Notes: generated from the letters alone by a model not told the origin. A stretch of 64,000 nucleotides of DNA from an uncultured Alphaproteobacteria bacterium (GCA_902570265.1 CACFXF010000009.1:1231-65230); one strand, 5' to 3'; shown: positions 805 through 17,479, numbered from the stretch's first letter. A program made the numbers and translations.

Positions 805-859
805 AATTGAATCTTACTTAAGCTGATAGTATCATCATAAAAAATTAATAATTTAATGA

Positions 860-1792
860 ATGTTCCATATGACTTTATTTAAAAAAATCATCTTTAATTT
901 TATTAAGATTTTAATTTTAAAATTTCTAATTAGTACACCCATTTTTGCTAAGCAAAACGATTGTAAAATAACTGCGGAAATGAGTAATGTCCCTGAGGAA
1001 TTATATGTAGATACTTACCCTATCATTATAACAGGAATAAACGAACTAGAGTCAACTTTCGATTACCAATTCTACCTAGGTTACTGGTATGAAATTGGCG
1101 GTGATATGCCTTACTGTTTCTTTGAATCAAATAATTTAGAAGAAGGAATATTTAATCCCTATTTTGAATTTCAAAATGCTATTGATTTGGAAAGAGTCAC
1201 TTCATTTGGAGTAGAAATAGAGGAGGAAGGAGTATATGTAAGTGCTAAATATAAAGGTAAATTTAAAGGTAAGTTTGATTTCACTATGTATCCTTTTGAT
1301 ACTCAAGACTTACATGTTGACATATCATCAACTTATTCCACAGATGATTTCAAAATTTATCTTGAGGATCAAAAAAATTCATTATTAGACGCGTTGGAGG
1401 TTCAGGGTTGGGATAAAATTAATTTTGCAAAAAAAATAGGTGTTGAAAAATGGGATCAAGATGATGAAGAGTATGATTTGATAAGTTATACAATCACCTT
1501 AGATCGACAGGTTTTTTCAATTTCTTTACGGCTTTTTTTGCCCCTGTTAGTAATTGTATCTTTAAACTTTTTATCCTTATTGCTAGAAAGAAATGATTTT
1601 GAATCAAAAATTGAAATACAATTAGCTGCCTTGATAGCAGTAGCAGCTTATTCTATACTTATGGATACAAAAATACCTGATCTACCTTACCTTACAATTG
1701 CCGATTCAATAATTGCTTTATCGTTTTTTTCTTCGGCAATTATACTCGCAATTTCTATTCTTAAAAAAAGAAAAAGGGATTACCAAAATTAG
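860..1792 (+). CDS. GLIC/ELIC-like pentameric ligand-gated ion channel homologue that ends about 10 aa after M3 (no M4)
   Basis: A signal peptide is followed by a roughly 180-aa extracellular-type domain. FTMYPFDTQDLHVDISS matches the Cys-loop-equivalent RRYPFDSQTLHIYLIV of GLIC as I recall it, and GWDKINF is also present. M1 is FSISLRLFLPLLVIVSLNFLSLLL, M2 is IEIQLAALIAVAAYSIL, then comes the PDLPYLT linker and M3. The stop codon lies inside repeat R1. Confidence 0.7.
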   Translation: MFHMTLFKKIIFNFIKILILKFLISTPIFAKQNDCKITAEMSNVPEELYVDTYPIIITGINELESTFDYQFYLGYWYEIGGDMPYCFFESNNLEEGIFNPYFEFQNAIDLERVTSFGVEIEEEGVYVSAKYKGKFKGKFDFTMYPFDTQDLHVDISSTYSTDDFKIYLEDQKNSLLDALEVQGWDKINFAKKIGVEKWDQDDEEYDLISYTITLDRQVFSISLRLFLPLLVIVSLNFLSLLLERNDFESKIEIQLAALIAVAAYSILMDTKIPDLPYLTIADSIIALSFFSSAIILAISILKKRKRDYQN

Positions 1793-1868
1793 ACATTAAT
1801 AGGCCATGGTTTTTGGGGCACCCTCGGGATATTTCGTAGGGGTAGGTGGAACGATTGTTATGTTTAGG
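1783..1868. repeat. Island repeat copy R1 (central hairpin segment missing)
   Basis: CCAAAAT..TAATAGGCCATGGTTTTTGGGGCACCCTCGGGATATTTCGTAGGGGTAGGTGGAACGATTGTTATGTTT aligns by eye with R3-R5. It overlaps the last codons and stop of the channel gene. Confidence 0.7.
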
Positions 1869-1885
1869 CAATTTTTTTGGCAAAT

Positions 1886-2119
1886 TTATTTTAGCAACTG
1901 AGTAAATCTTTGACCTTTATCTATTATTTTTGCTTCTAATAAAACTTCTGTGATAGCGTCCATCATCCCAAGGTCCTGATCAGTATATTCACCTTTTTCA
2001 ACTCTGCGTGCAGCCATGTAAAAATTAAGTGCTCCTAATGCATGATGATCACGCTTTTCACCGCCAGCAATTATTGATCCAGCATAATGATTAATTTTAT
2101 TTTCAATGAATATATCCAT
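1886..2119 (-). CDS. Hypothetical protein, 77 aa
   Basis: It is the only sizeable ORF in the R1-R2 interval. I recognise no motif in it. Confidence 0.35.
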   Translation of the reverse strand: MDIFIENKINHYAGSIIAGGEKRDHHALGALNFYMAARRVEKGEYTDQDLGMMDAITEVLLEAKIIDKGQRFTQLLK

Positions 2120-2211
2120 TTTAAACCCTTTTTTATTATGTATCTTAAATTAATACTTTTTATTTATGTCATATTTTTTTTAAATAAAATTAGAACAAAT
2201 TCAAATAATTT

Positions 2212-2270
2212 CCACCAAAAATATGTGAGAAGTAGTACTTGCTAATAATAGACTATGGTTTTTTTAGGAG
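2212..2270. repeat. Island repeat copy R2 (short)
   Basis: CCACCAAAAATATGTGAGAAGTAGTACTTGCTAATAATAGACTATGGTTTTTTTAGG shares the CCAAAA..GTGAG.AGTAGTACTTGCTAA..ATAG.CTATGGTTTTT core with R3 and R5. Confidence 0.7.
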
Positions 2271-2286
2271 TAATTTCTTAATTTTT

Positions 2287-2736
2287 TCAATGGTGCTTAT
2301 GAAAATCTATTTCCATTTTTTTAGTTAAAGGTACTTTATCTGCCATAAAATGACCATGATCATTTGAGTTCAAAGTTATTTCGATAATATTTTTCCCATT
2401 TTGCAACAACCTAGAAGGGATATGAAAATACGGGGAATATTGTCTAAATTTTGTACCATTAATATAGATATGAGCATGTCCTTCATTGCCATTATTTTTT
2501 CCATTAACGTTTTGGGGAGAAAATATAAAATTAGATGTATTAATTATAAGGTTAAAACCATCCATTTTATCTTCAAATAATTCAAAACTTAAAGTTGGAT
2601 AGGGTTTTTCTGCTTTTATCATTTTGTGTTTATTCTCATGTTTATGACTACTGTCATGATCATGATCATGATTTTCACTAGCATTCATAATATTAGTTAA
2701 AAAAATAAATATACTGATCAAAACCAAATTCTTCAT
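2287..2736 (-). CDS. Secreted histidine-rich putative metal-binding protein
   Basis: The likely start is the internal Met (MKNLVLISIFIFLTNIMNA signal peptide), not the ORF-track start at 2847. The mature end is ENHDHDHDSSHKHENKH, with an EGHAHIYING motif and an HKHH C-terminus. Confidence 0.55.
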   Translation of the reverse strand: MKNLVLISIFIFLTNIMNASENHDHDHDSSHKHENKHKMIKAEKPYPTLSFELFEDKMDGFNLIINTSNFIFSPQNVNGKNNGNEGHAHIYINGTKFRQYSPYFHIPSRLLQNGKNIIEITLNSNDHGHFMADKVPLTKKMEIDFHKHH

Positions 2737-2830
2737 AAACTTACCCCGTAATATCCCTAGATAATTATGACTAACTATAGATAAAAGCAGCAAATTTAAA
2801 GTTAAAAAATTATTTCTAAATACTATTGTT

Positions 2831-3295
2831 TTATTGCTCAACCTCAAAATCTAATTCAATATTACCAGCTTTTTTAAAAATAAATTTAGCCAAGTGAGGA
2901 TCCAACCATTCTAAACCTTTTTTTTCATTAAAAAAAATTAATTTAAAAGTATCCTCGTCAAAATATATTGCTTCACCACCACTAATTTCTAATCCTTCAT
3001 TTAAATCAACTTTAATATAATTCTCTGAAGCACCTTTTCTCTTCCAAATTTCAAAAGACAAAGAAAATTTTGGAATTATATTCATTAAATATTCACTATC
3101 TTCACCAATATTTTCTATTGTTAAGAACCCATAAGATCTGGAAACTTCCTGTTCAGTTTCTTTTATTAAATAAGGATGATAGATTATTAATGAACCGTGT
3201 TGTTCTTCATGAGCATTAATAGGACTTAAAAATAGGATGAAAACTAAGAACGATAAAATTTTTAATCTGTAATTTTTAAGCTTTTTCATAAACAA
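2831..3295 (-). CDS. Secreted PCu(A)C/DUF461-like protein; canonical Cu ligands not evident
   Basis: It has a signal peptide ending SPINA-HEEQHG. The pattern SLIIYHPY..GFLTIENIG..L...FEIW...IKV.L.EGLEI.GGE.I.F....FKLIFFN...AKFIFKKAGNIELDFEV follows the PCuAC beta-sandwich pattern as I remember it. The H(M)..M..HxM ligand positions are not conserved. Confidence 0.35.
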   Translation of the reverse strand: MFMKKLKNYRLKILSFLVFILFLSPINAHEEQHGSLIIYHPYLIKETEQEVSRSYGFLTIENIGEDSEYLMNIIPKFSLSFEIWKRKGASENYIKVDLNEGLEISGGEAIYFDEDTFKLIFFNEKKGLEWLDPHLAKFIFKKAGNIELDFEVEQ

Positions 3296-3345
3296 AACAA
3301 TAAATAATTTTTATTATTTGGAAAGTTTATTTTGAATTGCACCTA

Positions 3346-3427
3346 CCAACCAAAATGTGTGAGCAGTAGTACTTGCTAAAATAGGCTATGGTTTTTGGGA
3401 TACCCTTGAGAAATATATTACGGGTGA
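3346..3427. repeat. Island repeat copy R3
   Basis: The sequence is CCAACCAAAATGTGTGAGCAGTAGTACTTGCTAAAATAGGCTATGGTTTTTGGGATACCCTTGAGAAATATATTACGGGTG. Confidence 0.75.
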
Positions 3428-3507
3428 ATTATGTAAAAACTTAACTTTTTATTTTTTTTAAGCAAATAATATAAGTACTAAATAAGACAAAAGGAGTTAA
3501 AATCAAA

Positions 3508-3813
3508 ATGGTTGGAATGATTAACTGTATGAGGTTTAGACCTAAAGAAGGTCAGGTGGAAGCTTTGTTTAAGGCTTATGCAGAATACGTTAAAGATTAT
3601 CCATTTGATGACATAATGCATCAAATTATTGATCTAGGAACTGGAGAATACGCCCTAATAGGATTACATCATAGCATTGATACTTTTGTAGATATTATGA
3701 ATAGAGATAATCGTGTAAGTGATATGTTGAGAGAGTTCGTAGAGCCCTATGAAGACGGAGAAAGTTTTCATTCATTCTCGGGTCCTGTTGTAAACTATAA
3801 TGACTATCTGTAG
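3508..3813 (+). CDS. Small cytoplasmic protein, possibly ABM/Dabb-like ferredoxin fold, 101 aa
   Basis: AAGGAG lies about 8 nt upstream of the ATG. The size and the pattern (RFRPKEGQVEALFKAY...ALIGLH...) are reminiscent of antibiotic-biosynthesis-monooxygenase-like domains. The match is weak. Confidence 0.4.
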   Translation: MVGMINCMRFRPKEGQVEALFKAYAEYVKDYPFDDIMHQIIDLGTGEYALIGLHHSIDTFVDIMNRDNRVSDMLREFVEPYEDGESFHSFSGPVVNYNDYL

Positions 3814-3835
3814 TAAACATAAAAAAACTTTAATT

Positions 3836-4345
3836 CTAAAAACCTTGTTCTTCAATGCATTTCACTAACTCACTTACAGATGCAGCAGACCCTTTTAAAG
3901 AGAAACTACTGATTATCTTATCATTATCATCTAAATGGAAAAGCTCTTGACCTTTTCGAATTTCTTGAATCAATTCAATCACTGCTTTATCAGATCCAGA
4001 GTTTAGATCCATTACTAACCATCCAGAATCTAGATAAGGGCTTTCTGTATTCCAACTTGCAAGATCATCAACTGCAAATTGGAATATTTTTAAGCTTTCA
4101 TTTACATCTGACTCATCATCAAAAATAGCTAATTCTTCAACTTTAGCATTAACGTAAATTTGAAATTCTTTATTACCTAAACCATTTCTTGCAATGCATG
4201 CTGTACGTCTATCATCATACCTTAAAAGTACAACTTCCCAATTTCCTTTTTTGAAAAGTACCTTTTCATCAAATACTTCAGCTGAAAAAGAAGGATAGGT
4301 AAAAAAGAGATAAAATAATAATGTACAAAACTTAAATAATTTCAT
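3836..4345 (-). CDS. Secreted hypothetical protein (weakly IalB-like)
   Basis: The start was moved to the internal Met, giving the signal peptide MKLFKFCTLLFYLFFTYPSFSA. GNWEVV...C and the C-terminal FSLKGSAASVSELVKC resemble invasion-associated-locus-B type proteins. Confidence 0.4.
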   Translation of the reverse strand: MKLFKFCTLLFYLFFTYPSFSAEVFDEKVLFKKGNWEVVLLRYDDRRTACIARNGLGNKEFQIYVNAKVEELAIFDDESDVNESLKIFQFAVDDLASWNTESPYLDSGWLVMDLNSGSDKAVIELIQEIRKGQELFHLDDNDKIISSFSLKGSAASVSELVKCIEEQGF

Positions 4346-4439
4346 TTTAAAACCCCAGTTACTAAAGCAAAAAATCAAGTATGACTTCAATATAAATAAT
4401 TGTAATAAAAAAAAGTTAAATTTTTTAAATTAAAAATTT

Positions 4440-4798
4440 CCAACCAAAAAGTGTTAGTTATATCACTTCCTTATAATAGGCTATGGTTTTTGGGGTACCT
4501 TCAAGGATATGTCTTAGGGGTGGGGGTCATAAGTGTTATGATTATTATGTTCTCACGAAAAATTGACCAACTGCCCCTTTTACTGCCCCCTTTTGCACAT
4601 TTTCCCTATATTTTTCATTTTACAGAAACCAATTTCTGGTCATATAATTTAATGAAAGCAAGTTTCAGAGATGGAGGAAACACCAATGAAATATAGTGCA
4701 AAATGCCATTGTGGTGAAATAACTGTCTAGATGGAACATGAATCCATGATGCAGTTTTTGTTTCATTGTTCTATATGCCATCAAAGAATTGGAACTTC
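4440..4798. repeat. Island repeat copy R4 (long form, about 359 bp), the left direct repeat of the adhesin block
   Basis: It is collinear with 12262-12621. After a divergent first 40 nt it is roughly 85-90% identical by eye. It includes the short-repeat core, a conserved C-rich leader and the first 37 codons of a GFA-family gene. Confidence 0.85.
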
Positions 4799-4808
4799 AT
4801 CGGAATAG
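4686..4808 (+). pseudogene. GFA/CENP-V family gene fragment (5' end only, in-frame TAG)
   Basis: It reads MKYSAKCHCGEITV*MEHESMMQFLFHCSICHQRIGTS. The TAG at 4728-4730 replaces the GAG seen in the second copy, and homology ends at 4798. Confidence 0.75.
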
Positions 4809-4901
4809 TAATCAATAGTCTCAGTAGTTATAGATATTCAATAAAATAAGGCATTATTGTTATCAGCACTCTCAGTAAAATCTTTAGCTAGCTATGGTAT
4901 T

Positions 4902-5111
4902 CTAAGCCAATCGCCCCCTCAATCGCACCCCTATATTATCTAAAGCAGTATCTAACTTATCATCATTTGTATTAAAGAAGTGAGCATAGATTTTCATTGT
5001 TATCTGTAGTTTAGCATGCCCTAGCCTCTGTTGAATTTTTGGTAGATATATTTCTTCAGAAACCAAATTGCTAGACTTGTGCTTTTTTGATTTTGGAATT
5101 TTTGCCGAGTT
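4902..5111 (-). pseudogene. Tyrosine recombinase (phage-type integrase) 3' remnant
   Basis: The minus-strand frame reads NSAKIPKSKKHKSSNLVSEEIYLPKIQQRLGHAKLQITMKIYAHFFNTNDDKLDTALDNIGV...*. LGHxxxxxTxxYxH is the Box II / catalytic-Tyr motif. There is no room for the N-terminal 250+ aa before the lipoprotein gene at 5175. Confidence 0.65.
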
Positions 5112-5174
5112 AAAAAAAAATTTAATAATTAGTAATTCTTAGTAAAAAGGTATTTAAATGCAATCAATTATTGA

Positions 5175-5993
5175 CTAGTTACCATTTTTTCCTAGGAAAG
5201 CTCCCCTTATTTCAATTGAACCAGTATCTGTATCGTCAACGGAAAAAACTCCTCCAATCTCAGCTGAATTGGGACCAAAAAATGTGCCATCAGATTCCAT
5301 CTGATATTGATTAGTCAAAGTATTAGTAATAATTCCATTTTTTAATTCTATTTTGTTAAGACAAATTCTATTTCCATTACAAATAGAACCACTTGGGAAT
5401 ATAATATCTACAGCATTAGAAATTGGACAATCCCTGCAACTTAAATTTAGCATAGACATCTTCCCAGATAGCGAAGTCAATTCACCAACCAGCTCCCCTT
5501 CTAATCCATTAAAATCAATTTGAATTTTACTGTTTCCAGTCAAGTCATATAATGCAGTCCCATCATTTATAAAAATTCTAGATGTTCCCAAGTAAGTATA
5601 ATTACCCTCAACTATGTCCCCTGAAGATTCAGGAATTCCTATAATTCCGAAAGAACCATTCAAAGTATTACCTTCAGGAATATAAGTCACAAAACTTGTA
5701 AGATCCTTGATTGGAATTCCATTCTCTACATTCTTACTAGGCGCACCATCTTTTTCATTAATAATAACCAAAGCAGATCCTTGTTTCCTTACAAATTCTC
5801 CCTCAATATTCTCTAAATCTAAGGTAGTTCCGTCAATAGTTATTAATTTTAAATTAGATACATCTAATGAATTTAAATCATACAGAGATCCCTTTTGCTC
5901 TTCCATTTTTTGTATGGATTGACCACTACATCCAGTCATAATGAAACCAAATATAATTAAAAATATTATATTAAATTCCTTGATAAGCGACAC
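5175..5993 (-). CDS. Lipoprotein with a TbpB/fHbp-type C-terminal beta-barrel (surface-lipoprotein-like)
   Basis: It has a GTG start with AAGGAG about 9 nt upstream and a lipobox FIMTGC. GNSKIQIDFNGLEGELVGEL and DGTFFGPNSAEIGGVFSV...GSIEIRGAFLGKN match the F.GP.A.E.GG.F....G.F signature of transferrin-binding-protein-like barrels. Confidence 0.55.
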   Translation of the reverse strand: MSLIKEFNIIFLIIFGFIMTGCSGQSIQKMEEQKGSLYDLNSLDVSNLKLITIDGTTLDLENIEGEFVRKQGSALVIINEKDGAPSKNVENGIPIKDLTSFVTYIPEGNTLNGSFGIIGIPESSGDIVEGNYTYLGTSRIFINDGTALYDLTGNSKIQIDFNGLEGELVGELTSLSGKMSMLNLSCRDCPISNAVDIIFPSGSICNGNRICLNKIELKNGIITNTLTNQYQMESDGTFFGPNSAEIGGVFSVDDTDTGSIEIRGAFLGKNGN

Positions 5994-6014
5994 AAATATT
6001 GCTCCTTTTATTAA

Positions 6015-9000
6015 TTAAATTAGAGTAAAGTTATCAGGTGTAAACTCCTCAACCCTAATGTCATAAATCAATACTGTACAATCTCTATCAGAAAATTCTG
6101 AATGACCGTCTGGGGTAGTTTCAATCTTAGTAAGAACTTCTTCAAATCCATTATAATTAAAAGACTTGAGGTCAATCTTATCTTTGTCAATTTCAAAGTC
6201 TCTTCCCACTGGCTCAAATGAGCTTATATTGTTAAAATTCAGATTAAATTTAGCAATAATATCGTTTCCATCAGAGGGTGAGAATATAAATAAATCTGAT
6301 CCATTTCCTCCTTCAAGCAAGTCATCTCCAGCTCCACCCTCAAGTGTATCATTTCCATAAAAATAATCCGAAAATAAAAGATCGCCAATTATATAATCAT
6401 TTTCTGAGTTACCACTTAAAGGATTATCGCCCGTACCTCCAATTAAAATATCTGCTCCAGAACCACCTTCTGCTCCACTATTTTTACCAGCAGCAACAAT
6501 GAGATCATCATATTGACTGCCTTTTATAAGTATATTACTAAATGCATCTTTGAAAACGTTCCTGATGCTCGGTGGTAAAATAGCTTGTTTTAAAGAAATA
6601 TTTAACCCTGAGCTGGAAATTACCTCCTCATTGAAACCAACTGAATCAATGAAACTTGCTTTTACTGTTAAATTCTTTCCTATATCTTCATTTTTTATTA
6701 CATAATCACGTTCAGTTGCACCTAATATCTCTACATTATTTCTAAACCATTGAAAATCTAAACTTCCATAACCATCAGGATCAATAAAATTAGGGATTGC
6801 AAGAAGGGTTTCACCAACATCTGCCCTCCCACTTATTGTAATATCTCCTTTAGCAGGAGTATTACTAGCTGCAACGTTAATAACAAATTGATCAGTTATT
6901 TGGCCGCCATTTCCATCGTTAACTGTTATTTCAAAGGTATTCAGACCAAAATTTGATCTAGATGGATTGACTGTCAAAATTGTGGAAGATCCATCAAAAT
7001 TACACCAAGAAGGTAATGCAGCACCCCCAGGAAGTGTAATGGACATAGTTAAGTTGTGATCATCTGGATCTGTGAAAAATTGGTTAAATGATAAATTTTC
7101 AGAAGTATTTTCATAAAGGTTCCAAATCGGTATTGTTTTCTTTAAAACAGGATTATCGTTCACATTAGAAATGTTTAATACAACTGCTTTTGAACCTGAT
7201 AAAGCACCTAATCCATCATCAGTAGCAATAACTGTAAAATCATATGAAGATTTAGTTTCATAATCTGCTGAAGCCTTTAATCTAACTTCTCCATCATCTG
7301 CATCAATTGTAAAATATGATGAATCAGCACCGGAAATAGAAAATGTTAGATTATCGCCTGAATCCACATCAGTCGCCGTGGCAGTATATAAAACAGAACT
7401 ATTTGCTTGGTTTTCCGCAGCAGTAACCGTTGCAGAAGAAGTTATTGAAGGCATTTCGTTTACATCATTTACACTTATCGTAACTGCTTCTGTATCACTT
7501 GATCCATCAGGATCAGTAGCGATGACATTAAAAGAGTAGGAATTTTTTGTTTCAAAATTTGCTGAAGAATTTAATCTAACTTCTCCATCATCTGAATCAA
7601 TAGCAACCAAAGAAGCATCTGTTCCAGAAACTGAGTAAGTCAAGATATCTGTAATATCTGCGTCGGAAGCAGAGACATCATATATCACAGTGTTAGTATT
7701 AGCATTTTCTTGGATACTACCAGTTAAACTAGTAGTATCAATCGTAGGACTGGACTCATTGACGTTACTAACTGTAACCGTAAGTACTTGAGTAGAAAAA
7801 ATTCCTGAACCGTCGGTAGTTGTTGCTTTTACTTCAACCTGATAGGTATTATTTCCATCTGAATCTAGTGGAACTTCAAAGTTTGGGGCGGAATTAAAGG
7901 TTAAATTACCTGATCCGTCTATACTGAACTTACTCCCATCCAAACCAGAGTTTATATCCCACGTCACTCCTACATTTGCTGAAAATGTAGTAACAGCGGT
8001 TTGATTTTCCTGCTTTGTTATTGCTGAAGTATCTGAACCTGCAGAATTACTAGGTCCAGTAATTAAGGGTGTCCTAACATTAACGGTTAAAATACCAGTA
8101 TCAGTCCCACCATTTCCATCAGATACAGTATAGTTTATTGTCTCACTAATATTCGCCGCACCAGAAGGAGGTGTATAGTTTATCGTTGTTCCATTATGAC
8201 TTACAGTACCACTTCCTCCGTAACTTATTGATTGTATAGTTAACCCATCACCATCCTCATCTGTATCATCATTAAGGACGACAATACTATTAAGTGCCGT
8301 ATTTATAGTAGTTATTCCTAGGTCATCTGTAACTTCAGGGCTATCATTTTGATCTGATATATTGATAGTAATAGCCTTACTAGTTGAGGATGGAGTACCT
8401 CCATCATCTGTTGCTATTACATTCAAACTATAAGAGTTTTTAACCTCAAAGTTTGCAGAATTATTTAATCTGATTTCCCCATCATCCGAGTCTATAGTCA
8501 CTAAGGAAGAATCCGTACCGCTAACGGAGAATGCTAATGATTGTCCAGAATCAGGGTCAGAGGCTGAAGCATCATAGGCTATGGTACCTATTGAAGCATT
8601 TTCTGCTATTGAACCGCTTGAACCTGAGGAAATTACTGGAGGGTCATTAAGATCATTAATATTTAGGGATATAGCTTGCGTATCAGAAAGATTTCCGCCA
8701 ACACCATTGTCTGTTACAGTAACGTTAAAACTATAAGAACTCTTATTCTCATAATCAGCTGAAGCTTTTAACCTAACTTCTCCGTCATCAGCATCAATTG
8801 TAAAGTGCGATGAATCAGCACCTGAAATCGAAAATGTCAAGGTGTCAGCAGTATCCAAATCTGTAGCTTCAGCATCATAAATCACAATGCTAGGGTTCTG
8901 GTTTTCATCAGCATTTACCACTGATCCAGATGTAATATTTGGGGCATCATTGATAGAAGTAAAATTAATGTCGAGGGTACCTGTCCCCGACTGTTCCGCT

Positions 9001-10556
9001 CCACTAATACCATTAATGCTGGTCCCTTTAACTGTTAAAGTTTTTGATGCTGGCGGATTATCTGAAGTGCTTTCATATTTTACCTTTCGAGCAATGTCTT
9101 GAACCATTCCATCAGTAATGGTTGTAGGAGCTGGAATACTTTCTGTTACACTCACATTATCTACATATAGTTGCGCACCTGCCCATCTACCTCCTGAAAA
9201 ATCAAAAGTTCCAGAGACAAATACAAAACGATAAGAGCCTGGATTAGTAACGGTGACAGTCTCTGTAGCCCAAGATGTTGTTGCACCTCCTGAAGAGCCC
9301 GTTTCATTTAATATTTCTACAAAGCTATTATCATCTTTATTGACGATATATCCAAAAACATCATAGGCATCGGACCCTCCTACGGCTTTCCAATCAAAGC
9401 TGACTTTATCATTTGCTCTTAAGAAAACAGTATTATCACTATAAAGTGCAGGACCTCTAACAATATCATAACCTGACTTTGCAATTATTCCAGTGCTTGT
9501 TAATCTAACAGAGTATTCTCCTCCACCATCATTATTCACTGCGGCTGAATAAGTTCCAACAGTAGTCGGAATATTTTGATCAGAAATAGCTCTTCCAATT
9601 GCTGGAGGGGTAGTGTCTGTTGGCGTATTCAAACCACCAATTTGGGTTACTCCAAAATAAATAGGGCCAGACTGTATTTGCCAGTTTCCAAAAGAGGAAG
9701 ATCCATCATTAGTTTCAAAATTTCCATTTTGAAAACTATTTGAAATATTTACCCTTAATGGATTACCATTTAATCCATTCTTAGTTGAATCAACGTTACC
9801 TAATATAGCAGCACCAGTTCCATTACCAACGTAAACAACAGATCCTATTATCGAGACCTGGCCGTTTATGGTCGAAGCTGCTCCATCATTAGAAAATCTA
9901 AGAAAGTCATGGCTATCAGAGGAAGAAAGACTAAATTCTAAATACCCCCCTGCATAATTATCACCACCAGCAGCTCCACCAGTAATTGATATGTCGCTAT
10001 CTATAACTGAAAGTGCAGCTTGTTCATTATAAGATAAGTCAGTAAGGTTGGTTATTGAGGGAGTGCCCAAAGTTCCTGGGATAGAAGAAGGATAGAGTGA
10101 AGCACTTTCAATTCTTCCAACTGTAGTTTCTAAATCCCAATCACCACCAAAGGATGGTGAGCCCGAAATATCATCTGATGCTGCAAAATCAACACCTGAA
10201 ATTCTTGAAAGAAGTTGTAAGAATTCTTCTCCTTTTCCACCACTACCAATGTCACATCCATAAAGATGGATATCTGCTTCCTTACCTAATGAATTACCTA
10301 TCGTGATTAAATCTTTGCTAAAATTTTTTGCATTATCAGTGGTTACTGAACCACTGGAAAATTTTAAAACACCTGATTCACCATGGCTAAAAATATGTAA
10401 GGAACCTAGATTACTGTCATTACCAATAATGTTAGCAATTTGACGAAGAGCATTTTGATTAGTATCTAAGATATGAACTAAATAGTGTTCAGATAACTCA
10501 TCTAATAAAGCCAAATATCCAGGCACACTTTTATCAATAAATACTACTGCCATCAT
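6015..10556 (-). CDS. Giant (1513 aa) DUF4347-cadherin-RTX repeat protein, putative T1SS-secreted adhesin
   Basis: The N-terminus (VVFIDKSVPGY...HIFSHGESG...HLYGCDIG) looks like DUF4347. At least 6 cadherin-like modules carry the ...D.D.GD.L.FS.SG.D...F.ID...G...L....D(Y/F)E....Y...V.A.D motif. The C-terminal nonapeptides are GGSGADILIGGTGDN and LEGGAGDDLLEGGNGSDLFIF (about 6280-6500). Confidence 0.85.
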   Translation of the reverse strand: MMAVVFIDKSVPGYLALLDELSEHYLVHILDTNQNALRQIANIIGNDSNLGSLHIFSHGESGVLKFSSGSVTTDNAKNFSKDLITIGNSLGKEADIHLYGCDIGSGGKGEEFLQLLSRISGVDFAASDDISGSPSFGGDWDLETTVGRIESASLYPSSIPGTLGTPSITNLTDLSYNEQAALSVIDSDISITGGAAGGDNYAGGYLEFSLSSSDSHDFLRFSNDGAASTINGQVSIIGSVVYVGNGTGAAILGNVDSTKNGLNGNPLRVNISNSFQNGNFETNDGSSSFGNWQIQSGPIYFGVTQIGGLNTPTDTTPPAIGRAISDQNIPTTVGTYSAAVNNDGGGEYSVRLTSTGIIAKSGYDIVRGPALYSDNTVFLRANDKVSFDWKAVGGSDAYDVFGYIVNKDDNSFVEILNETGSSGGATTSWATETVTVTNPGSYRFVFVSGTFDFSGGRWAGAQLYVDNVSVTESIPAPTTITDGMVQDIARKVKYESTSDNPPASKTLTVKGTSINGISGAEQSGTGTLDINFTSINDAPNITSGSVVNADENQNPSIVIYDAEATDLDTADTLTFSISGADSSHFTIDADDGEVRLKASADYENKSSYSFNVTVTDNGVGGNLSDTQAISLNINDLNDPPVISSGSSGSIAENASIGTIAYDASASDPDSGQSLAFSVSGTDSSLVTIDSDDGEIRLNNSANFEVKNSYSLNVIATDDGGTPSSTSKAITINISDQNDSPEVTDDLGITTINTALNSIVVLNDDTDEDGDGLTIQSISYGGSGTVSHNGTTINYTPPSGAANISETINYTVSDGNGGTDTGILTVNVRTPLITGPSNSAGSDTSAITKQENQTAVTTFSANVGVTWDINSGLDGSKFSIDGSGNLTFNSAPNFEVPLDSDGNNTYQVEVKATTTDGSGIFSTQVLTVTVSNVNESSPTIDTTSLTGSIQENANTNTVIYDVSASDADITDILTYSVSGTDASLVAIDSDDGEVRLNSSANFETKNSYSFNVIATDPDGSSDTEAVTISVNDVNEMPSITSSATVTAAENQANSSVLYTATATDVDSGDNLTFSISGADSSYFTIDADDGEVRLKASADYETKSSYDFTVIATDDGLGALSGSKAVVLNISNVNDNPVLKKTIPIWNLYENTSENLSFNQFFTDPDDHNLTMSITLPGGAALPSWCNFDGSSTILTVNPSRSNFGLNTFEITVNDGNGGQITDQFVINVAASNTPAKGDITISGRADVGETLLAIPNFIDPDGYGSLDFQWFRNNVEILGATERDYVIKNEDIGKNLTVKASFIDSVGFNEEVISSSGLNISLKQAILPPSIRNVFKDAFSNILIKGSQYDDLIVAAGKNSGAEGGSGADILIGGTGDNPLSGNSENDYIIGDLLFSDYFYGNDTLEGGAGDDLLEGGNGSDLFIFSPSDGNDIIAKFNLNFNNISSFEPVGRDFEIDKDKIDLKSFNYNGFEEVLTKIETTPDGHSEFSDRDCTVLIYDIRVEEFTPDNFTLI

Positions 10557-10847
10557 TATATTTTACATGAATATAATCTATAATCCAAATTTTCTCTTCT
10601 ATTAAGAAACGACTATTGTAAATTCGTATATCTAATTTATAGATAGTACATTTTTTTATAGGTGTTAATAGAAATTGGTAGTCAACAGTCTTAGCCACAA
10701 TATGCTCGTTACTATTGTTGATATAAATAGTTTTGCTTATTATTTGTGAATTAAAGTATTTTCAAAAATATCTTTTTAAGTAATTCAAAATTATAAATAT
10801 AAATATTATTCTTTATTTTTTTATTTATTTCATACATTTTATTTTCT

Positions 10848-11885
10848 ATGAAAAAGTTGGGGTTTTTAAATATAATATTTATAACATACTTTTTTTTACA
10901 TACTCCCTTAGTATACGGATCAGAAAGGTTAGAATTATATTTTCTTACTGAAAAATTATTAAATACAAAAATATTAAATACAAACGAATTTATACAATTT
11001 AGTTTAAATTCAAAATCTTTAGGCTTTAAATACTTAAAGGATAATAACAAAAAAAAATCTATATTTTTAATTAATAGAGCCTTTTATCCAATAATTACCT
11101 ATTCAGATAATATCAACGGAGGTAACCTATTCCAAACAATTCAGTTAGGTGAACTAACGTTTGAGGGTGAAGAGGAGGCCAAAGCAAAATCAGGTTTATT
11201 AATTGGTGGTGGTATCTTCTTAGATATCAAAAAACAATATGGGATAGGGAGATATCTTGATTTAAGAATGAATGCCTCATTATCTGCGGCACCCACTCAT
11301 GATTGGTTAAGCATTAGAGACAAATCCATAATTGCTTGTTCAAAAAATCATCTAAAAGAATGGTTTTTTTTTGATGCCTGTGCACATTGGGGACATAATA
11401 AAAGACAATATATAGATGAAATTAATAAAAATCTTTCAGTTTCATTAACAAGATTATTTATAACTAAAAAAGTCTTTAACGAAAGTATTTTTACAATAAA
11501 TAGACATATTTCTGATAAATATCATCAAATGCAAGGAATATTTGCATTAAATTCATTATTACCTAATGGTTACAAAACAAATTTCTCTATTACACTTGGT
11601 GAACCAATTAAAGAATTAATTTCATTAAATTACTCATTAAGTCTAGCTGTAAGCAAATATATAAAGAGAAAACCGTTGAGGCTTTCATTAAAGCAAACTC
11701 ATTATGATGGTGGAAAATTCCTTGGAATAGATAGGGAAGATACTACCCAACAAATATCTGTTTCATATCCCATCAATAACAGATTTAATATTGCTTTGGG
11801 ATATACTAGAAATAAATCTTCCATTAGTTCTTTTAGCCATAACGGACCCCACATAGAGTTTTCATTTCCTTTACGAAGTTTTTAA
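10848..11885 (+). CDS. Outer-membrane beta-barrel protein, 345 aa (possible minimal Slam/DUF560-like barrel)
   Basis: The signal peptide is MKKLGFLNIIFITYFFLHTPLVYG. It shows alternating hydrophobic strands and the C-terminal ...HIEFSFPLRSF with a terminal Phe. YSDNINGGN and the REDT...NKSSISSFSH tail are reminiscent of DUF560, recalled from memory only. Confidence 0.5.
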   Translation: MKKLGFLNIIFITYFFLHTPLVYGSERLELYFLTEKLLNTKILNTNEFIQFSLNSKSLGFKYLKDNNKKKSIFLINRAFYPIITYSDNINGGNLFQTIQLGELTFEGEEEAKAKSGLLIGGGIFLDIKKQYGIGRYLDLRMNASLSAAPTHDWLSIRDKSIIACSKNHLKEWFFFDACAHWGHNKRQYIDEINKNLSVSLTRLFITKKVFNESIFTINRHISDKYHQMQGIFALNSLLPNGYKTNFSITLGEPIKELISLNYSLSLAVSKYIKRKPLRLSLKQTHYDGGKFLGIDREDTTQQISVSYPINNRFNIALGYTRNKSSISSFSHNGPHIEFSFPLRSF

Positions 11886-11946
11886 TAAAATCTTTAAAAT
11901 TTAGCCTAAGCATATATAAAGTCTTGGAAGATCAGTTATTTTTTTA

Positions 11947-12165
11947 CTTAGAAAAGCTGTTCTTGAAGCTATTAAAGAAAATAATGATAAGACACAGAAA
12001 GAGTTAATAGAAATTATGACTAATGAAGGTTTTAAAACTTCAAAAGGTAAATCAATCAGCAAACAGCAAATGTCTGATTGTATTATTGGATTACTTGAAG
12101 AAGGTTTAATTGGGAAAACAGTTTTAGCGCATAAAGAGACTTATTACGATAGTCCACTTACTTAA
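11947..12165 (+). pseudogene. Start-less winged-helix-like ORF fragment
   Basis: The frame is open from 11920 with no ATG/GTG/TTG start. It reads LRKAVLEAIKENNDKTQKELIEIMTNEGFKTSKGKSISKQQMSDCIIGLLEEGLIGKTV, a wHTH-like pattern. Confidence 0.3.
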
Positions 12166-12261
12166 CTGACCGAACTTACTCACCATTCATTTGCATTAAC
12201 TGGTAAGCTTAGTAAGTGCAGTAAGTTCCATTCTAAATTAAAGCCACTTATTTTATATCTT

Positions 12262-12621
12262 CCATACCAAAATATGTAAGCAGTAGTACTTTCTAAGAAT
12301 AGGCTATGGTTTTTTGGGGTACCCTCAAGGATATGCCTTAGGGGTGGTGTTATGATTGTTATGTTTGTTATGTTCTCACGAAAAATTGACCAGCTGCCCC
12401 TTTTACTGCCCCCTTTTGCACGTTTTCCCTATATTTTTCATTTTATAAAAAATAATTTCTGATTGTATAATTTATTGAAAGTAAGTTTAAGAGATGGAGG
12501 AAACCCCAATGAAATATAGTGCGAAATGCCATTGTGGTGAAATAACTGTCGAGATAGAACATGACCCTATGATGCAGTTTATGTGTCACTAATCTATATG
12601 GCATCAAAGAATTGGAACTTC
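12262..12621. repeat. Island repeat copy R5 (long form, about 360 bp), the right direct repeat of the adhesin block
   Basis: It is collinear with 4440-4798. It contains the best copy of the short-repeat core (CCAAAATATGTAAGCAGTAGTACTTTCTAAGAATAGGCTATGGTTTTTTGGGGTACCCTCAAGGATATGCCTTAGGGGTGG). Confidence 0.85.
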
Positions 12622-12958
12622 TATTTCTGCTTTAGCTTGGCCTGAACATGAAATAATTATAACTGGTAATTTAAAACCTTATAAAATATTTGGTGGCATT
12701 GGTATGGATATGTATTACTATTACTGTCCATCTTGTAGTTGTTTTATATATAATAAACCTGATCTTCTTGAAGGAATGGTTTATATCCCAGCCGGATTAT
12801 TAGGAGAGCAAATAGAATTTAAACCAACAGTTGAATTATGGTCAGGCAATAGACCCAATTGGATGCAGAAAGCTCCCTCCATAATTGAGTCTTTTGCAGA
12901 CAATGGCACCTTAGAAAGACTTCAAGAGTTATTAGAAAATCTAGATCAAAGAGAATAA
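12509..12958 (+). pseudogene. GFA (glutathione-dependent formaldehyde-activating)/CENP-V family gene with an in-frame TAA
   Basis: A single 150-codon frame reads MKYSAKCHCGEITVEIEHDPMMQFMCH*SIWHQRIG...YYCPSCSCF... The TAA at 12590-12592 sits where copy R4 has Cys (CHCSIC), and the second Cys is changed to Trp. Confidence 0.7.
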
Positions 12959-12977
12959 TTTAATAACAATTTTATTT

Positions 12978-13565
12978 TTATGCTGATGCTAAAGAAAGTA
13001 TAACTACTAAAATCAAACTTATTGCCATCAAATATCTTACTATATTTTTGATAGTTTTACTCAAAGGTAATTCATAAAATAAAACTCCTGCATGTAACCA
13101 AATTAAATGTATAGGAATCCAAATTAAATTACTTATTAGCAGTTTTAATAAAATTTCTGTTAAAAAATTTGTGGGATAGAAAACAAAACCTGAATAAAAA
13201 GATAAATTAACTATGTAAGCTTTTGGATTAATAAGCTGTAAGAATATTCCATGCTTAATTCCAGGCATAGTTTGGGATTTTAAAAAATTGAAATTGGCAT
13301 CTTTAAAAATAATTTTTAATGATAGATATATAAAAAAAATTGACGATAAAAATAAACAAATAGTTCTAACTATGGGATAAGAAAAAATAACACTTGCTAG
13401 ACCAGAAATAACTAATAAAGCAACAATGTTAGTACCCAAAAAAAGTCCAAAAACATATCTTATTCCTGATTTAAACCCATAAGCGGCACCTACTCCAGCA
13501 GTTGATAAAACCCCGGGACCAGGAGTAATTATAAGGAAGAAAACACCAAAAGCGAAAATAATCAA
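12978..13565 (-). CDS. LysE/RhtB family amino-acid exporter
   Basis: It is 195 aa with 6 hydrophobic segments. The N-terminal FFLIITPGPGVLSTAGVGAAYGFKSG is typical of LysE-type translocators. Confidence 0.7.
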   Translation of the reverse strand: MIIFAFGVFFLIITPGPGVLSTAGVGAAYGFKSGIRYVFGLFLGTNIVALLVISGLASVIFSYPIVRTICLFLSSIFFIYLSLKIIFKDANFNFLKSQTMPGIKHGIFLQLINPKAYIVNLSFYSGFVFYPTNFLTEILLKLLISNLIWIPIHLIWLHAGVLFYELPLSKTIKNIVRYLMAISLILVVILSLASA

Positions 13566-13761
13566 AAGGATAAGTCTCTACTGAAAAAAGAAGATATTTA
13601 TGAATAAATAAAACATAAGTTAAGTATTTTAAAGAATAAAATAAATTTATCACTTTAAAGTAAAATCTTATTCTCTGACAATTTTAAAATTAGTTTACTC
13701 AAGTTATGAAAATATATAAAATATAAATGATATATTTTTTTTAATTAAGCAGAGAACATAA

Positions 13762-14735
13762 TTGGACGATAAAGAATTTGGCACTCGTGATAAACGTGGT
13801 GATTGGGCTCCAACTAAATTATTAGAGCCAGCTCCTCTTTGGTTATTCCCACCTAAACCAAAAAAAATATTGGCTTGGATACCTGCATATTTTTTTCCTT
13901 ATAACTTACTATTTATGATTTCCTCAATTATTTATTGGTTTCTTGTTATACCCCCAGTGGAAAATATGTCTAATTTTTCATGGGATTGGACTATTAATAT
14001 TTTAGTTATTAATATGGTTTTGGCTTTTATTTGGTATCAAGGATGGGAAGTTCCCCTTTACATAATGAAAAACAAGAAAATAGATTCAAATATAATAAAA
14101 GCTTTCCTCAGGATATTACAAATAAGTTTTTTTGGTTCAAAAACCAAACAATAGATAATATGACAAGATCAATGCTTTTTGGTGTTCCAATATGGTCTAT
14201 ACTTCAAATTCTAATGTTATGGACTTTTTCCAATGGATACATACCTTGGATTAATTTTTCAGAGAATAAAATATGGATCATTCTTATGATTTTATTTGTA
14301 CTTATAATTAATGATTTTCATTTTTACTGCATTCATAGACTAATACACATTCCTATACTATATAAATGGGTGCATTCTGTTCATCATAAATCAGTGAATC
14401 CAAGTCCATGGTCATCACTATCAATGCATCCAGTTGAACATATTTTATATTTTGGCACAGTTTTCTGGCATTTTTTGCTACCATCTAACCCAATTATAGC
14501 ACTTTATCAATTACATTTTGCAGGCTTTGGAGCTGTACCAGGTCATATTGGTTTTGATAAAGTTGAAATATCAGCGAAAAAAGCATTTGATACTCATGCT
14601 TATATGCATTACCTTCATCATTAATACTTTAACGTTAATTATGGTGGTGATGGGTTAGTACCATTTGATAGATTTTTTGGAACATACCACGATGGATCCA
14701 AAGATTCAGATAATAGATTTAAACCTAAGACTTAA
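13762..14735 (+). pseudogene. Fatty acid hydroxylase/sterol desaturase family gene with a frameshift and an in-frame TAA
   Basis: His boxes HRLIH, HSVHH and HYLHH are present. The reading frame switches near the C-run at 14053-14056 (ORFs 13762-14154 and 14031-14624). The TAA at 14622-14624 is followed in frame by the conserved YFNVNYGG..LVPFDRFFGTYH. Confidence 0.7.
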
Positions 14736-14782
14736 TTGACATAACTTTTCAGAAAAATATTTTAAATAATTATTTAAGAAAA

Positions 14783-15668
14783 ATGATATTTATTGAAGTT
14801 ATAGAGATTGTTTTTCCTGTTTTTTTTCTTTCATTTCTTGGTTTTTTTTGGGTTAAAAAGGGATTTGAATATCCTATGCAATTTGTAACTAGTTTGTGTA
14901 TGAACATAGCAGTTCCTTGCCTTGTATTCGTTTCACTAATGAATACTAAAATAGACATAAAACTTTTGTTCAATTTTACTCTGGCCACTCTTTTTACCTA
15001 TACATTTATAATTATAACCTTTTTTTTTATCATTAAATTAATTAAAATAAATTCTAAAACATATTTGGCTCCTTTATCTTTTGGCAATACTGGTAATATT
15101 GGTTTACCTTTAGCTTATTTTGCATTTGGAGAAATTGGCTTAGGTTATGCTGTTTTAGTTCTATCAATTACATCAATTTTATCTTTTTCTATTGGAATTT
15201 GGTTTGTTTCAGGAAAGATGTCATTACTTAAAACACTTAAAAATGAACCCCTGCTAACAGCAACATTTATAGGTTTATTTTTTTTAGTAACAGGATACCA
15301 AACTCCACATTTTTTAACCTCTACATTTGAGCTAATTGGACAAATGGCTATACCACTTATGCTAATTACACTTGGAGTAGCAGTAGCTAGTTTAAATGTT
15401 ACTCATTTTTTATTGGGCTCTAAAATTAAGTATTTTAAAGTTATTTATCTGCATATCATTATCTCTAATTATTGGGTACATTTTATATCTTGACCGTATT
15501 CCTTTTTCTATTCTTGTTTTGCAAATGTCTGCACCAGTTGCTGTAACTTCTTATCTTTTAGCAAAAAAATATAATGCTGATGATAAAGCGGTTGCTGGAA
15601 TTGTTATTGCATCCACAAGTTTATCAATTTTATATTTTCCAATAATTTTATATTTTCAATTGAGCTAA
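14783..15668 (+). pseudogene. AEC (auxin efflux carrier) family permease, frameshifted in a T6 run
   Basis: Two overlapping ORFs (14783-15493 and 15396-15668) together give a typical roughly 295-aa AEC protein. The frame change falls at the T-run 15406-15411. It could be a sequencing error. Confidence 0.6.
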
Positions 15669-15694
15669 AATTAAAAAGTATAAATAAAATCACA

Positions 15695-17479
15695 TCAGTA
15701 TATAATGGAACCTACATTAGGAAGAAAAATAACTGTATTTCCAGAAACAATTAAAAATAATCTATTTAATATTAAATTTTTACCAATCAAACCTTTACTA
15801 ACAAAAAATAATCCTACCCCAATTTGAATTGAGGTTAAAATACTTAAAAGTGGAAAATTGGCAAAATCAATTAACGAAGGGTGACGTATCATAGCAAGTG
15901 GAATGATATATAATCCTAGACCCAAAACTAGAGCAGTTTTGGCAACTTTTAACCAATTCTCTTCTACCATACTTGCTGCAATAAAAACACCTCCACAAAC
16001 AGGTGGTGTGATTGTAGACAAAAGTGCAAACCAGAAAATGAATAAATGTACTAATAGTGGTTTAAGGCCTAAATCAATAAGTGCTGGACCAGCTACAGAT
16101 ACACAGATTACATATGCTGCAGTTGTAGGAACTTCCATTCCTAAAATGAGACATGCAATGGCCGTTAGAAAAAGAGCTAACCATAAATTACCACCAGATA
16201 GGGTAATAATTGAAGATGTTACTTTTATTCCCAACCCTGTTATTCCTAGAACCCCAACTATTAGTGAAGCACAAAGAATAATAGATGCTATTATTGATAC
16301 TTGACGACCTGCAAATAACGATGCGTTAACAATTCTTGTTTTTGTCGTTTTCCAACTAAAATTTAAATTTATGTCAAAAAATAAAAGAAGTAATCCAGAT
16401 AGTATTGCAATTGCTGCTGAAAACTGAGGTGTGTAGCCTGAATACATAAATGCCAACAATACTGAAAATGGAATAAGAAAAAAAAGAGCAGTTTTAATAA
16501 CTGTAGAAATTTGAGGCAACATTTCTACTTTATAAGGTTTTAAATCATATAGTTCAGCATATCGATTAACACCAAGCCAGATAGCAAAAAAATATAGTAA
16601 CGCTGGAATAAAGGCAGCTATTATTATTTGGCTATATGGAATCCCTGTTAATTCAACCATTACGAAAGCACCCGCACCCATAAGTGGTGGCATTATTTGA
16701 CCACCTGTAGATGCAACAGCTTCTACTGCACCAGCAATTTTTTTTGAATATCCTAGTTTTATCATAGTAGGTAATGTAACCATACCAGTTGAAGCAACAT
16801 TAGCTGAAGCAGAACCTGAAATTGAACCAAATAAGGCAGAGGAAATTACTGAAACTTTTGCAGCACCACCCCTTAATCTTCCAGCAGCTACAATCGCAAT
16901 GTTCATAAATCCCTGACCTGCTTCACCTGCATTCAGAATGGCTCCAAAAATTACAAAAACTGCTACAATAGAGACAGATACACCTGTTAATTTTCCCCAT
17001 AATCCTCCTTCAGTAATGATTAAAGTACCCAAAAAACTATTAATTGGAATTCCAGGATGACCAAATTCACCAGGGATCTTATCACCAGTTAATCCATACA
17101 ATAGAAAAATTAGAGTGATCAATGGAAGAGGCCAACCCACTGTACGTCGAGCCATTTCTAGTGTGATAAAAATTAAAATTATCGAAATTAAAAATTGATT
17201 TGTCCCATCCAAAAAACCGTACTGTTCAGATAGTAGAGGCTCATTAATTACAATATAAACACAGCTTAAAATACCAAAAAACGAAAATATATATCCTAAA
17301 AATAGTTGAGGTTTATTTTGAGAAATAAAAATAAAAACCCAAGGTATTGCTAAAGCCATATGCAAAGGTCGAGAAATTAAACTGGGAACAAGTCCTGAGA
17401 AAATAAGATAGATATGAAATAAGATTGATAATAATCCTAGTCCAATCCATATATATTTTATTTCTTTAAGATTAATCAT
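15695..17479 (-). CDS. TRAP transporter fused 4TM/12TM permease (TAXI type)
   Basis: It is about 594 aa and highly hydrophobic, sitting downstream of a TAXI receptor. The start was chosen at MINLKE (AAGGA 9 nt upstream) rather than the ORF-track start at 17509. Confidence 0.8.
   Translation of the reverse strand: MINLKEIKYIWIGLGLLSILFHIYLIFSGLVPSLISRPLHMALAIPWVFIFISQNKPQLFLGYIFSFFGILSCVYIVINEPLLSEQYGFLDGTNQFLISIILIFITLEMARRTVGWPLPLITLIFLLYGLTGDKIPGEFGHPGIPINSFLGTLIITEGGLWGKLTGVSVSIVAVFVIFGAILNAGEAGQGFMNIAIVAAGRLRGGAAKVSVISSALFGSISGSASANVASTGMVTLPTMIKLGYSKKIAGAVEAVASTGGQIMPPLMGAGAFVMVELTGIPYSQIIIAAFIPALLYFFAIWLGVNRYAELYDLKPYKVEMLPQISTVIKTALFFLIPFSVLLAFMYSGYTPQFSAAIAILSGLLLLFFDINLNFSWKTTKTRIVNASLFAGRQVSIIASIILCASLIVGVLGITGLGIKVTSSIITLSGGNLWLALFLTAIACLILGMEVPTTAAYVICVSVAGPALIDLGLKPLLVHLFIFWFALLSTITPPVCGGVFIAASMVEENWLKVAKTALVLGLGLYIIPLAMIRHPSLIDFANFPLLSILTSIQIGVGLFFVSKGLIGKNLILNRLFLIVSGNTVIFLPNVGSIIY

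Follow-up and report, generated by a model that had tools for sequence, protein, structure and literature searches.

A probable, decayed integration site of a lambda-type tyrosine recombinase in the 5' part of a GFA-family gene of an uncultured marine alphaproteobacterium

We analysed a 64,000-nucleotide stretch of DNA from an uncultured Alphaproteobacteria bacterium (GCA_902570265.1 CACFXF010000009.1:1231-65230), hereafter the window, in the region between positions 4440 and 12958. In this region, two copies of the 5' part of a GFA/CENP-V-family gene flank an adhesin gene and the remnant of a tyrosine recombinase gene. An earlier note, made from the sequence alone, had described the region as the footprint of an integrative element that entered the 5' end of the GFA gene while carrying a replacement for that end, and that later lost its integrase. 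Each copy begins with a dispersed intergenic repeat of ~85 nt, here called REP (CCAAACCAAAATGTGTGAGCAGTAGTACTTGCTAATAATAGGCTATGGTTTTTGGGGTACCCTCAAGGATATGTCTTAGGGGTGG). The features of the two copies and of the left junction are as follows, in window coordinates.

4440-4798, plus strand: left direct repeat (attL-type), comprising REP copy c4 (4443-4527), GTNAYAT iterons, arm repeats, a promoter-like site, and the GFA start at 4686 with 37 codons
4570-4577 and 4582-4589, plus strand: arm-type direct repeats ACTGCCCC of the left copy, one helical turn apart
4619-4648, plus strand: promoter-like TTTACA-18-TATAAT of the left copy
4782-4798, plus strand: inferred core site CAAAGAA/TTGGAAC/TTC, with imperfect inverted repeats round a 7-bp candidate overlap at 4789-4795 (read by eye)
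4799-4904, plus strand: P' arm (ATCGGAATAGTAATCAATAGTCTCAG...), with an nhmmer P' profile match at 4800-4933 (E=5.6e-32)
4902-5066, minus strand: tyrosine recombinase remnant, stop codon and last 55-57 codons (LGH...YAHFF), catalytic Tyr region included
12262-12621, plus strand: right direct repeat, comprising REP copy c5 (12266-12346), iterons, arm repeats, a promoter-like site, and the GFA start at 12509
12394-12400 and 12405-12413, plus strand: arm-type repeats of the right copy
12442-12471, plus strand: promoter-like TTTATA-18-TATAAT of the right copy
12605-12621, plus strand: inferred core of the right copy

A repeat search and MAFFT pairwise alignment revealed that 4440-4798 and 12262-12621 are collinear direct repeats with ~88% identity, the value for the final 208 bp before the junction being 88.5%. 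The order within each repeat is REP, three GTNAYAT iterons, two arm-type repeats, the promoter-like site, a leader with a ribosome-binding site, and 37 GFA codons. The homology breaks off abruptly at 4798 on the left and 12621 on the right, after GFA codon 37, as the earlier note had described. Only the right copy continues into the rest of the gene; its full-length reading frame (12509-12958, plus strand) matched Pfam GFA (PF04828) with E=2.4e-19 when its stop codon was repaired, while the left copy ends after 37 codons. The promoter-like site inside the duplicated arm was conserved in all 13 sequences that cover this region. When the last 208 bp are compared with the intact GFA 5' regions of the population, identity is 94-95% for the left copy and 90-93% for the right one; this difference is confounded by pseudogene decay, and the identities therefore do not settle which repeat is the original.

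Both GFA copies are inactivated. The left copy has a TAG at codon 15 (4728-4730), where all ten intact relatives have GAG, and the right copy has a TAA at codon 28 (12590-12592), where the consensus of the same ten is TGT. Three codons past this TAA, a consensus TGC, also present in 10/10 relatives, is changed to TGG, which replaces Cys with Trp. The intact relatives (92-93% identity) carry the Zn-binding Cys motifs CHC...CHCSIC...CPSC, and two of those Cys codons have been lost in the window. Comparison with the ten relatives thus bears out the loss of both copies that had been read from the window itself, and the right copy is now a pseudogene.

Just inside the left junction, the P' arm of the window was homologous to the integrase-proximal arms of the fetched loci L076, L080, L081 and L075, and more distantly to those of L052, L060 and L038. 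Just past it, at 4911-4931, the P' arm-type repeats TCGCCCCC and TCGCACCCC lie within the last integrase codons. The integrase remnant is 86% identical to the intact 405-aa integrase of L076 over 57 residues (349-405), and a hidden Markov model (HMM) built from integrase C-termini matched it with E=1.5e-28. The Pfam search that had been proposed as a check also returned Phage_integrase (PF00589; profile positions 137-168 of 172, E=5.7e-4), although its 20.1 bits are below the curated cutoff of 27.1. The remnant is therefore real, but it is shorter than the approximately 65 codons up to 5111 given in the earlier note, as it comprises 55-57 codons (4905 to ~5066-5075) and breaks at 5066/5067 upon comparison with contig L078. 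Approximately 350 N-terminal codons are gone. Among the catalytic motifs, only RLGHAK and KIYAHFF are retained; the others are lacking, and the remnant thus cannot be active.

The left junction, CAAAGAATTGGAACTTC/ATCGGAAYAGTAATCA (..GGAACTTC/ATCGGAA), was seen six times, namely at the left repeat of the window, twice in L075, and once each in L076, L080 and L081. In an alignment of 14 sequences, ten intact GFA genes read GGAACTTC/TATTTCTGC at the same base, and the last base common to the interrupted (attL) and intact (attB) forms before they diverge is 4798. An imperfect inverted repeat round 7 bp, such as that read at 4782-4798, is how a tyrosine-recombinase core is usually built.

Thirteen loci were obtained when metagenomes were scanned with the repaired GFA protein. 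In L076, L080 and L081, the integrase gene lies directly beside a 37-codon GFA fragment with a junction identical to that of the window, and intact versions of the element with a full integrase, for which the earlier note had suggested a search, were thereby found. L076 and L081, which come from different samples, show the attP order: stop codon of an AAA_25 gene, arm, 37 GFA codons, junction, P' and integrase. The arm of the element holds the promoter-like TTTACA-18-TATAAT and the GFA start, which supports the claim that it brings its own 5' end. The first and last 77 bp of L076 (5683 bp) are exactly identical, and this contig is probably a circle of ~5.6 kb that carries attP and a replication module and no cargo. 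Its integrase gene is followed by a 249-aa open reading frame (ORF) and by two others, one excisionase-like (HTH_17) and one replication-initiator-like (HTH_36). At the opposite side, the gene for the AAA_25 helicase-type ATPase ends right where the arm begins.

The L076 integrase contains PF00589 (83.9 bits, E=1.5e-23, cutoff 27.1), Phage_int_SAM_3 and Arm-DNA-bind_4, and it matched the phrog_1 integrase (E=4.8e-54) and the integrase structure 3nkh in the PDB (E=1.4e-10). Its catalytic motifs TGARRGE, FHDLRHS, RLGHAK and KIYAHFF (Arg, His-x-x-Arg, His/Trp and the Tyr nucleophile) are all present. The PHROGs labels for the genes of the element are integrase, replication initiation, and helicase/primase. 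Identity of the element's integrase to its nearest counterparts in phages is only 25-29%, and a scan of IMG/VR with the integrase returned only a 26%-identical relative and no sign of packaging in viral contigs. We also observed that the arm-type repeats co-vary with the DNA that encodes the last integrase residues in all three elements compared, reading ACTGCCCC in L081, CGCACCC in L076 and ACTGCCCAAT in L075 (regions L081:1151-1560, L076:1930-2340 and L075:527-960, with 4570-4590 and 4911-4931 in the window). Because of this co-variation, the repeats fit the role of candidate binding sites for the Arm-DNA-binding domain.

An empty site was found in L067, which contains the amine oxidase gene, one REP with its arm, an intact GFA gene, LysE, and then the same right-flank genes as the window. 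At the DNA level, window positions 1-832 and 12269-16000 match L067 at 89% and 93.9%, and the interval 833-12268 is absent, with 108 bp in L067 against 11.4 kb in the window. The right flank is also common to L069, L072 and L074, and nine further loci have an intact GFA gene. The existence of this site bears on the idea that the GFA 5' region was duplicated in tandem long ago, independently of the genes that now lie in between, and that the integrase-like frame is a chance match. The sub-threshold Pfam score of the remnant would agree with such an origin. However, the 86% identity of the remnant to an intact integrase C-terminus, the identical breakpoint seen six times in different samples, and the empty site refute a tandem duplication, to which we assign practically no probability.

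Taken together, these comparisons indicate that the left junction at 4798/4799 is very probably the attL of a site-specific element with a lambda-type tyrosine recombinase and a fixed site in GFA codons 33-38, and that this element has decayed in the present genome. The comparisons with the integrase, the empty site and the intact elements support the footprint that had been proposed for the locus. When the attP, attB and attL sequences are set side by side, attP is seen to have one arm of ~290 bp, made up of three iterons, two arm repeats, the GFA leader with a sigma-70-like promoter before it, and the first 37 codons of GFA. Its other arm, P', is ~105 bp long and passes into the integrase gene at the 3' end of that gene. 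The resident GFA gene is attB, and attL is its 5' part joined to P' and the integrase gene. Integration would strand the old promoter and 5' end at attL, beside the integrase gene, and the body of the GFA gene would be re-fused at attR to the promoter and 5' end of the element, so that the gene stays expressible. In the window genome, the backbone of the element was presumably lost, with P' and the last 55-57 integrase codons left; other DNA, including a separately mobile adhesin/lipoprotein block, would have come between the GFA 5' copies, and both copies may have gained their stop codons later.

The region between the amine oxidase and GFA genes is an additive hotspot, with 11.4 kb of REP-bounded segments in the window, and gene-exchange hotspots of this sort are typical of low-GC marine alphaproteobacteria. 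In L075, two junctions of the GFA fragment with P' lie 8 kb apart, with transporter, sulfatase and amidohydrolase genes as cargo between them and a REP and arm before the second; the first integrase of this contig is cut down to ~35 codons. The unit of REP, arm, leader and GFA gene was observed in two chromosomal contexts, either before LysE (window, L067, L069, L072 and L074) or before an integrase remnant that is followed by an operon of 480-aa, 320-aa, 266-aa and 244-aa genes (L065, L066 and L068). Since it occurs in both, the GFA gene itself behaves as a movable cassette. Exact-protein look-ups of the LysE and 184-aa ORFs of the window gave no match, probably on account of the chosen start codons.

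The interior of the island contains the following features.

5067-10618, minus strand: adhesin block, with a TbpB-like lipoprotein (5175-5993) and a 1513-aa DUF4347/cadherin/RTX adhesin (6015-10556), assigned by Pfam
10848-11885, plus strand: 345-aa ORF with no family match, 53% identical to an ORF upstream of the adhesin in LRMED-261
11944-12165, plus strand: 73-codon winged-helix-like ORF fragment, weak Pfam HTH_61 match (E=0.008)

The adhesin block is 97.8% identical to contig L078, where the left neighbour differs from base 5066/5067 on, and 92% identical to L077 (L077:8684-15382) of the metagenome-assembled genome (MAG) LRMED-261, where it lies behind a decayed tRNA-Gln-type junction. The lipoprotein and the adhesin thus travel together as a separately mobile block, and the interior is a composite, since the block has different neighbours in L078 and LRMED-261. 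An adhesin is thus found between the repeats, as the earlier note had it, but its view of a single 7.4-kb island with the adhesin as cargo needs refinement, as the block moves independently and the 7.4 kb may not be one element. The 345-aa ORF is inverted relative to LRMED-261, in which it shares the strand of the adhesin as an apparent operon; that it encodes an outer-membrane protein is a guess. The winged-helix fragment could be a leftover gene of the element. It had no relative among the fetched loci, and as a candidate C-terminus of the AAA_25 protein it was rejected because no similarity was found.

Several observations weigh against integration of one element as the source of both repeats and of the DNA between them. 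The right repeat has a REP upstream of its arm, whereas in L076 and L081 the arm starts directly at the iterons after the AAA_25 stop codon; since the free elements have no REP, the right end as observed is not what insertion of one of them in a single step would produce. Both arms in the window are of the ACTGCCCC type, whereas the P' beside the remnant is of the TCGCACCCC type, like that of L076. None of the backbone genes (AAA_25, xis and HTH_36) was found within 5067-12246, and the adhesin block has other neighbours elsewhere. L067 is not an exact empty site, as it lacks the entire 11.4-kb array and not 4799-12621 alone. The Pfam match of the remnant itself stays under the curated cutoff, and the whole case consists of comparative sequence evidence, with no observed excision or integration.

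An alternative, which we consider unlikely, though the least unlikely of those weighed for the junction, is that the junction was already formed when it arrived, with no integration into the GFA copy of this genome. A decayed attL-type segment (REP, arm, GFA fragment, P' and integrase remnant) would have come to lie, along with the adhesin block, before a REP-arm-GFA unit that was resident there, either by shuffling of cassettes or arrays or by homologous recombination between repeats. The two repeats would then be two independent cassettes and not the attL and attR of one event. The REP of the right repeat is like that of the empty-site chromosome L067 and unlike attP, which agrees with such a course, and so do the mismatch between the flanking arm-type repeats and the P' of the remnant, the occurrence of the REP-arm-GFA unit in two chromosomal contexts, and the recurrence of the adhesin block and the 184-aa ORF in different arrays. 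In addition, three genomes share a 91-aa cassette at 99% identity, while the REPs on either side of it are not identical (~90% alike); the cassette stops at the outer edges of these REPs. However, the tandem integrase-type junctions of L075 at GFA have a REP before the arm, so the REP of the right copy is compatible with accretion, and the left copy is as close to intact GFA 5' regions (94-95%) as would be expected of a resident copy. Moreover, the junction would still be the product of the same site-specific integration.

The REP itself had been taken in the earlier note, as a short repeat core, for part of the GFA 5' region. We found instead that it is a dispersed, lineage-wide repeat, with five copies in the window, all on the plus strand, at approximately 1780-1870, 2215-2270, 3349-3420, 4443-4527 and 12266-12346. 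The three copies outside the direct repeats are the following.

1699-1914, plus strand: REP c1, centre and right arm with a degenerate left half (nhmmer model positions 12-227)
2189-2263, plus strand: REP c2, left half and centre only
3278-3431, plus strand: REP c3, left half, centre and proximal right part

REP c1 overlaps the stop codon of a Cys-loop-channel-like ORF (860-1792). This 310-aa ORF showed a weak match to the ligand-binding domain of neurotransmitter-gated ion channels (E=3e-4) and lies within the region absent from L067.

A pattern scan of the GTDB representative genomes found the REP core dozens of times; the genomes concerned are single-cell genomes of low GC content (28-36%) that carry the label uncultured Alphaproteobacteria, and the MAG LRMED-261, whose label is Paracoccaceae. 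By profile, 142 REP copies were found in the fetched loci, in same-orientation arrays with spacings of 0.5-3 kb (L009-L062, e.g. L026, L011, L012 and L054). Left-only, right-only and full forms all occur. One or few genes, on either strand, lie between the REPs, and the same cassette genes recur in different orders across genomes, as do the adhesin block and the 184-aa ORF in different arrays. We also observed a 104-aa DUF6974 gene inside a REP, between AATAGG and CCTATAGGATATG, with identical junctions in at least five loci and a different arm after each (L001:374-840, L065:1242-1840, L046, L041 and L027).

With regard to the nature of the REP, a riboswitch or other structured RNA in the leader or core was rejected, as no Rfam family matched at either threshold and single-sequence folds were about as stable as shuffles (z about +0.65). 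RNAalifold on 62 REPs, on one strand, gave 0 consensus pairs. A tRNA or tRNA fragment was likewise rejected because ARAGORN found none at any REP; a 13/15 resemblance to the tRNA-Gln anticodon arm remains in the central 15 nt, and this arm is the crossover site of a sister integrase. L058 and L038 each show a fusion of a tRNA 3' half with a partial REP, of which the left half and the centre are kept.

This resemblance and these fusions, together with the same-orientation arrays in which one or few genes separate left-only, right-only and full forms, would agree with a crossover at the conserved REP centre (AATAGGCTATGGTTTTTGGGGTRCCCT), in the manner of an integron attC or of a secondary tRNA-like att site, with the GFA fragment as a passenger. 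We regard this as highly improbable for the island. The free elements L076 and L081 are without any REP, the six identical junctions lie ~300 bp downstream of it, and the identity of the recently exchanged 91-aa cassette breaks at the outer edges of the REPs and not at the centre. In addition, a P'/integrase remnant follows only 20 of the 142 REPs (~14%). The REP centre was therefore rejected as the crossover site of the island.

Integrases of the same family, with full lengths of ~391-414 aa, were found in the same position and orientation beside other targets. One is tRNA-Gln, of which L060:255-830 has the 5' half, cut within the anticodon loop; an intact tRNA-Gln preceded by the same arm is present in L036:3600-4100 (MAG LRMED-261). 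Another is a ~100-nt site ending in GGGTATCGATTAATCTTTG. The tRNA-Gln element thus seems to exchange the 5' half of the tRNA gene together with the sequence upstream, whereas it is usually the 3' end that is replaced. REP-arms approach tRNA-Gln from both sides in L036.

Outside the window, all 11 integrase remnants in the fetched loci (L009, L011, L023, two in L025, L027, L030, L038, L054, L057 and L075) keep only the last 28-57 codons, with a query start residue of 357 or higher, and no remnant with the N-terminus only was found among these loci. The truncation points bunch just upstream of the catalytic Tyr codon. This pattern suggests that the P' arm within the 3' end of the integrase gene is preferentially retained in decay, and some of the remnants may share ancestry.

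On a wider view, we tentatively suggest, as a possibility that is less likely than not, that the island belongs to a system by which low-GC marine Alphaproteobacteria shuffle genes throughout the lineage. It would be made up of small integrative elements able to replicate, which share a modular arm and the ~85-nt REP; each subfamily of their integrases would have its own target gene and act in the 5' part of it. Three targets have been observed: codons 33-38 of GFA, the anticodon loop of tRNA-Gln (where the 5' half is replaced) and the ~100-nt site. The integrase-less, REP-bounded cassettes, always keeping the P' arm within the last 28-57 integrase codons, might be decay products that are re-mobilised in trans, in an integron-like economy with lambda-type att sites.

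Among known systems, the closest concept, by architecture, is the tycheposon. Tycheposons are described as integrative elements of Prochlorococcus and other marine bacteria that use seven tRNA/tmRNA target genes and leave partial tRNAs, and related elements are reported in Alphaproteobacteria (bioRxiv 10.1101/2020.12.28.424599, Hackl et al.). They share with the present elements an inward-facing tyrosine recombinase at one end, a small replication module with a helicase/primase-type ATPase and an initiator-like HTH, and the occurrence of both cargo-bearing and minimal forms. Repeated integration at one site that pushes older elements inward is also common to both, as are partial target repeats, integrase fragments and additive islands in streamlined ocean bacteria. 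A repeat comparable to the REP does not feature in the tycheposon preprint as far as it was read (bioRxiv 10.1101/2020.12.28.424599). The defining tRNA or tmRNA target is absent in the present case, in which the target lies within a protein-coding gene, at GFA codons 33-38, with replacement of the gene's 5' end and promoter. The sister elements in the same genomes do use tRNA-Gln.

SXT/R391 integrative and conjugative elements (ICEs) at prfC and the dusA-specific integrase islands insert near a gene start and supply a new promoter and 5' coding segment, so that the target stays functional. The present element is similar in that a tyrosine recombinase element lies near the start of a conserved gene, with direct repeats from the gene's 5' region. 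In contrast, its target is a GFA/CENP-V-type zinc protein in another host lineage, it is much smaller (~5.6 kb), with a replication module, and not a conjugative ICE, and the restored gene in this genome is now a pseudogene.

In lambda-type attP sites, arm-binding integrases use arm-type sites on both arms. The element resembles this arrangement in the N-terminal arm-binding domain of its integrase, in an attP of ~400 bp with direct arm-type repeats on both arms, in the integrase 3' end that abuts P', and in the excisionase-like HTH_17 gene nearby. However, one attP arm is long and holds a promoter, a leader and 37 target codons, and the putative P' arm-type sites lie inside the last integrase codons and co-vary with them.

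The window island can also be compared with the cis-mobilizable elements (CIMEs), which are integrase-less, att-flanked remnants known from the Streptococcus ICESt family. Like them, it is flanked by attL- and attR-like repeats and has lost its recombination module. Such a segment could in principle be mobilised again if an intact relative were added in tandem, in the way seen in L075. The arm sites on its two sides mismatch, however, and no sign of ongoing mobilisation of the remnant was seen.

The likeness to integrons concerns the REP arrays only, in which same-orientation short repeats separate one or few genes and cassettes occur in different orders. In contrast to integrons, no attC-like hairpin was found, given the RNAalifold result on 62 REPs, on one strand; the genes occur on both strands, each genome holds many arrays, and the REP is conserved in sequence and not in structure. 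No IntI-type integrase was seen, without a search aimed at IntI, and the integrases found are of the arm-binding lambda type.

Taken by itself, the island is an ordinary integrative element in decay and adds no new biochemistry; its protein-gene target is new, and the hotspot is unusually repeat-structured. The more novel lead is the lineage-wide organisation of REPs and cassettes, together with a family of integrases that replace the 5' ends of their targets. Public data yielded all of the attP, attB, attL and tandem forms, and the integrase and its ~17-bp core are therefore directly testable; they might also serve as a genetic tool for this lineage. Streamlined marine organisms are usually thought to hold few classical mobile elements. 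The present comparison offers a sequence-resolved mechanism by which a streamlined, uncultured marine alphaproteobacterium may gain flexible genes, here the 1513-aa cadherin/RTX adhesin and, in a sister contig, transporters and a sulfatase, and from the REP arrays it seems that cassettes are organised at a second level as well.

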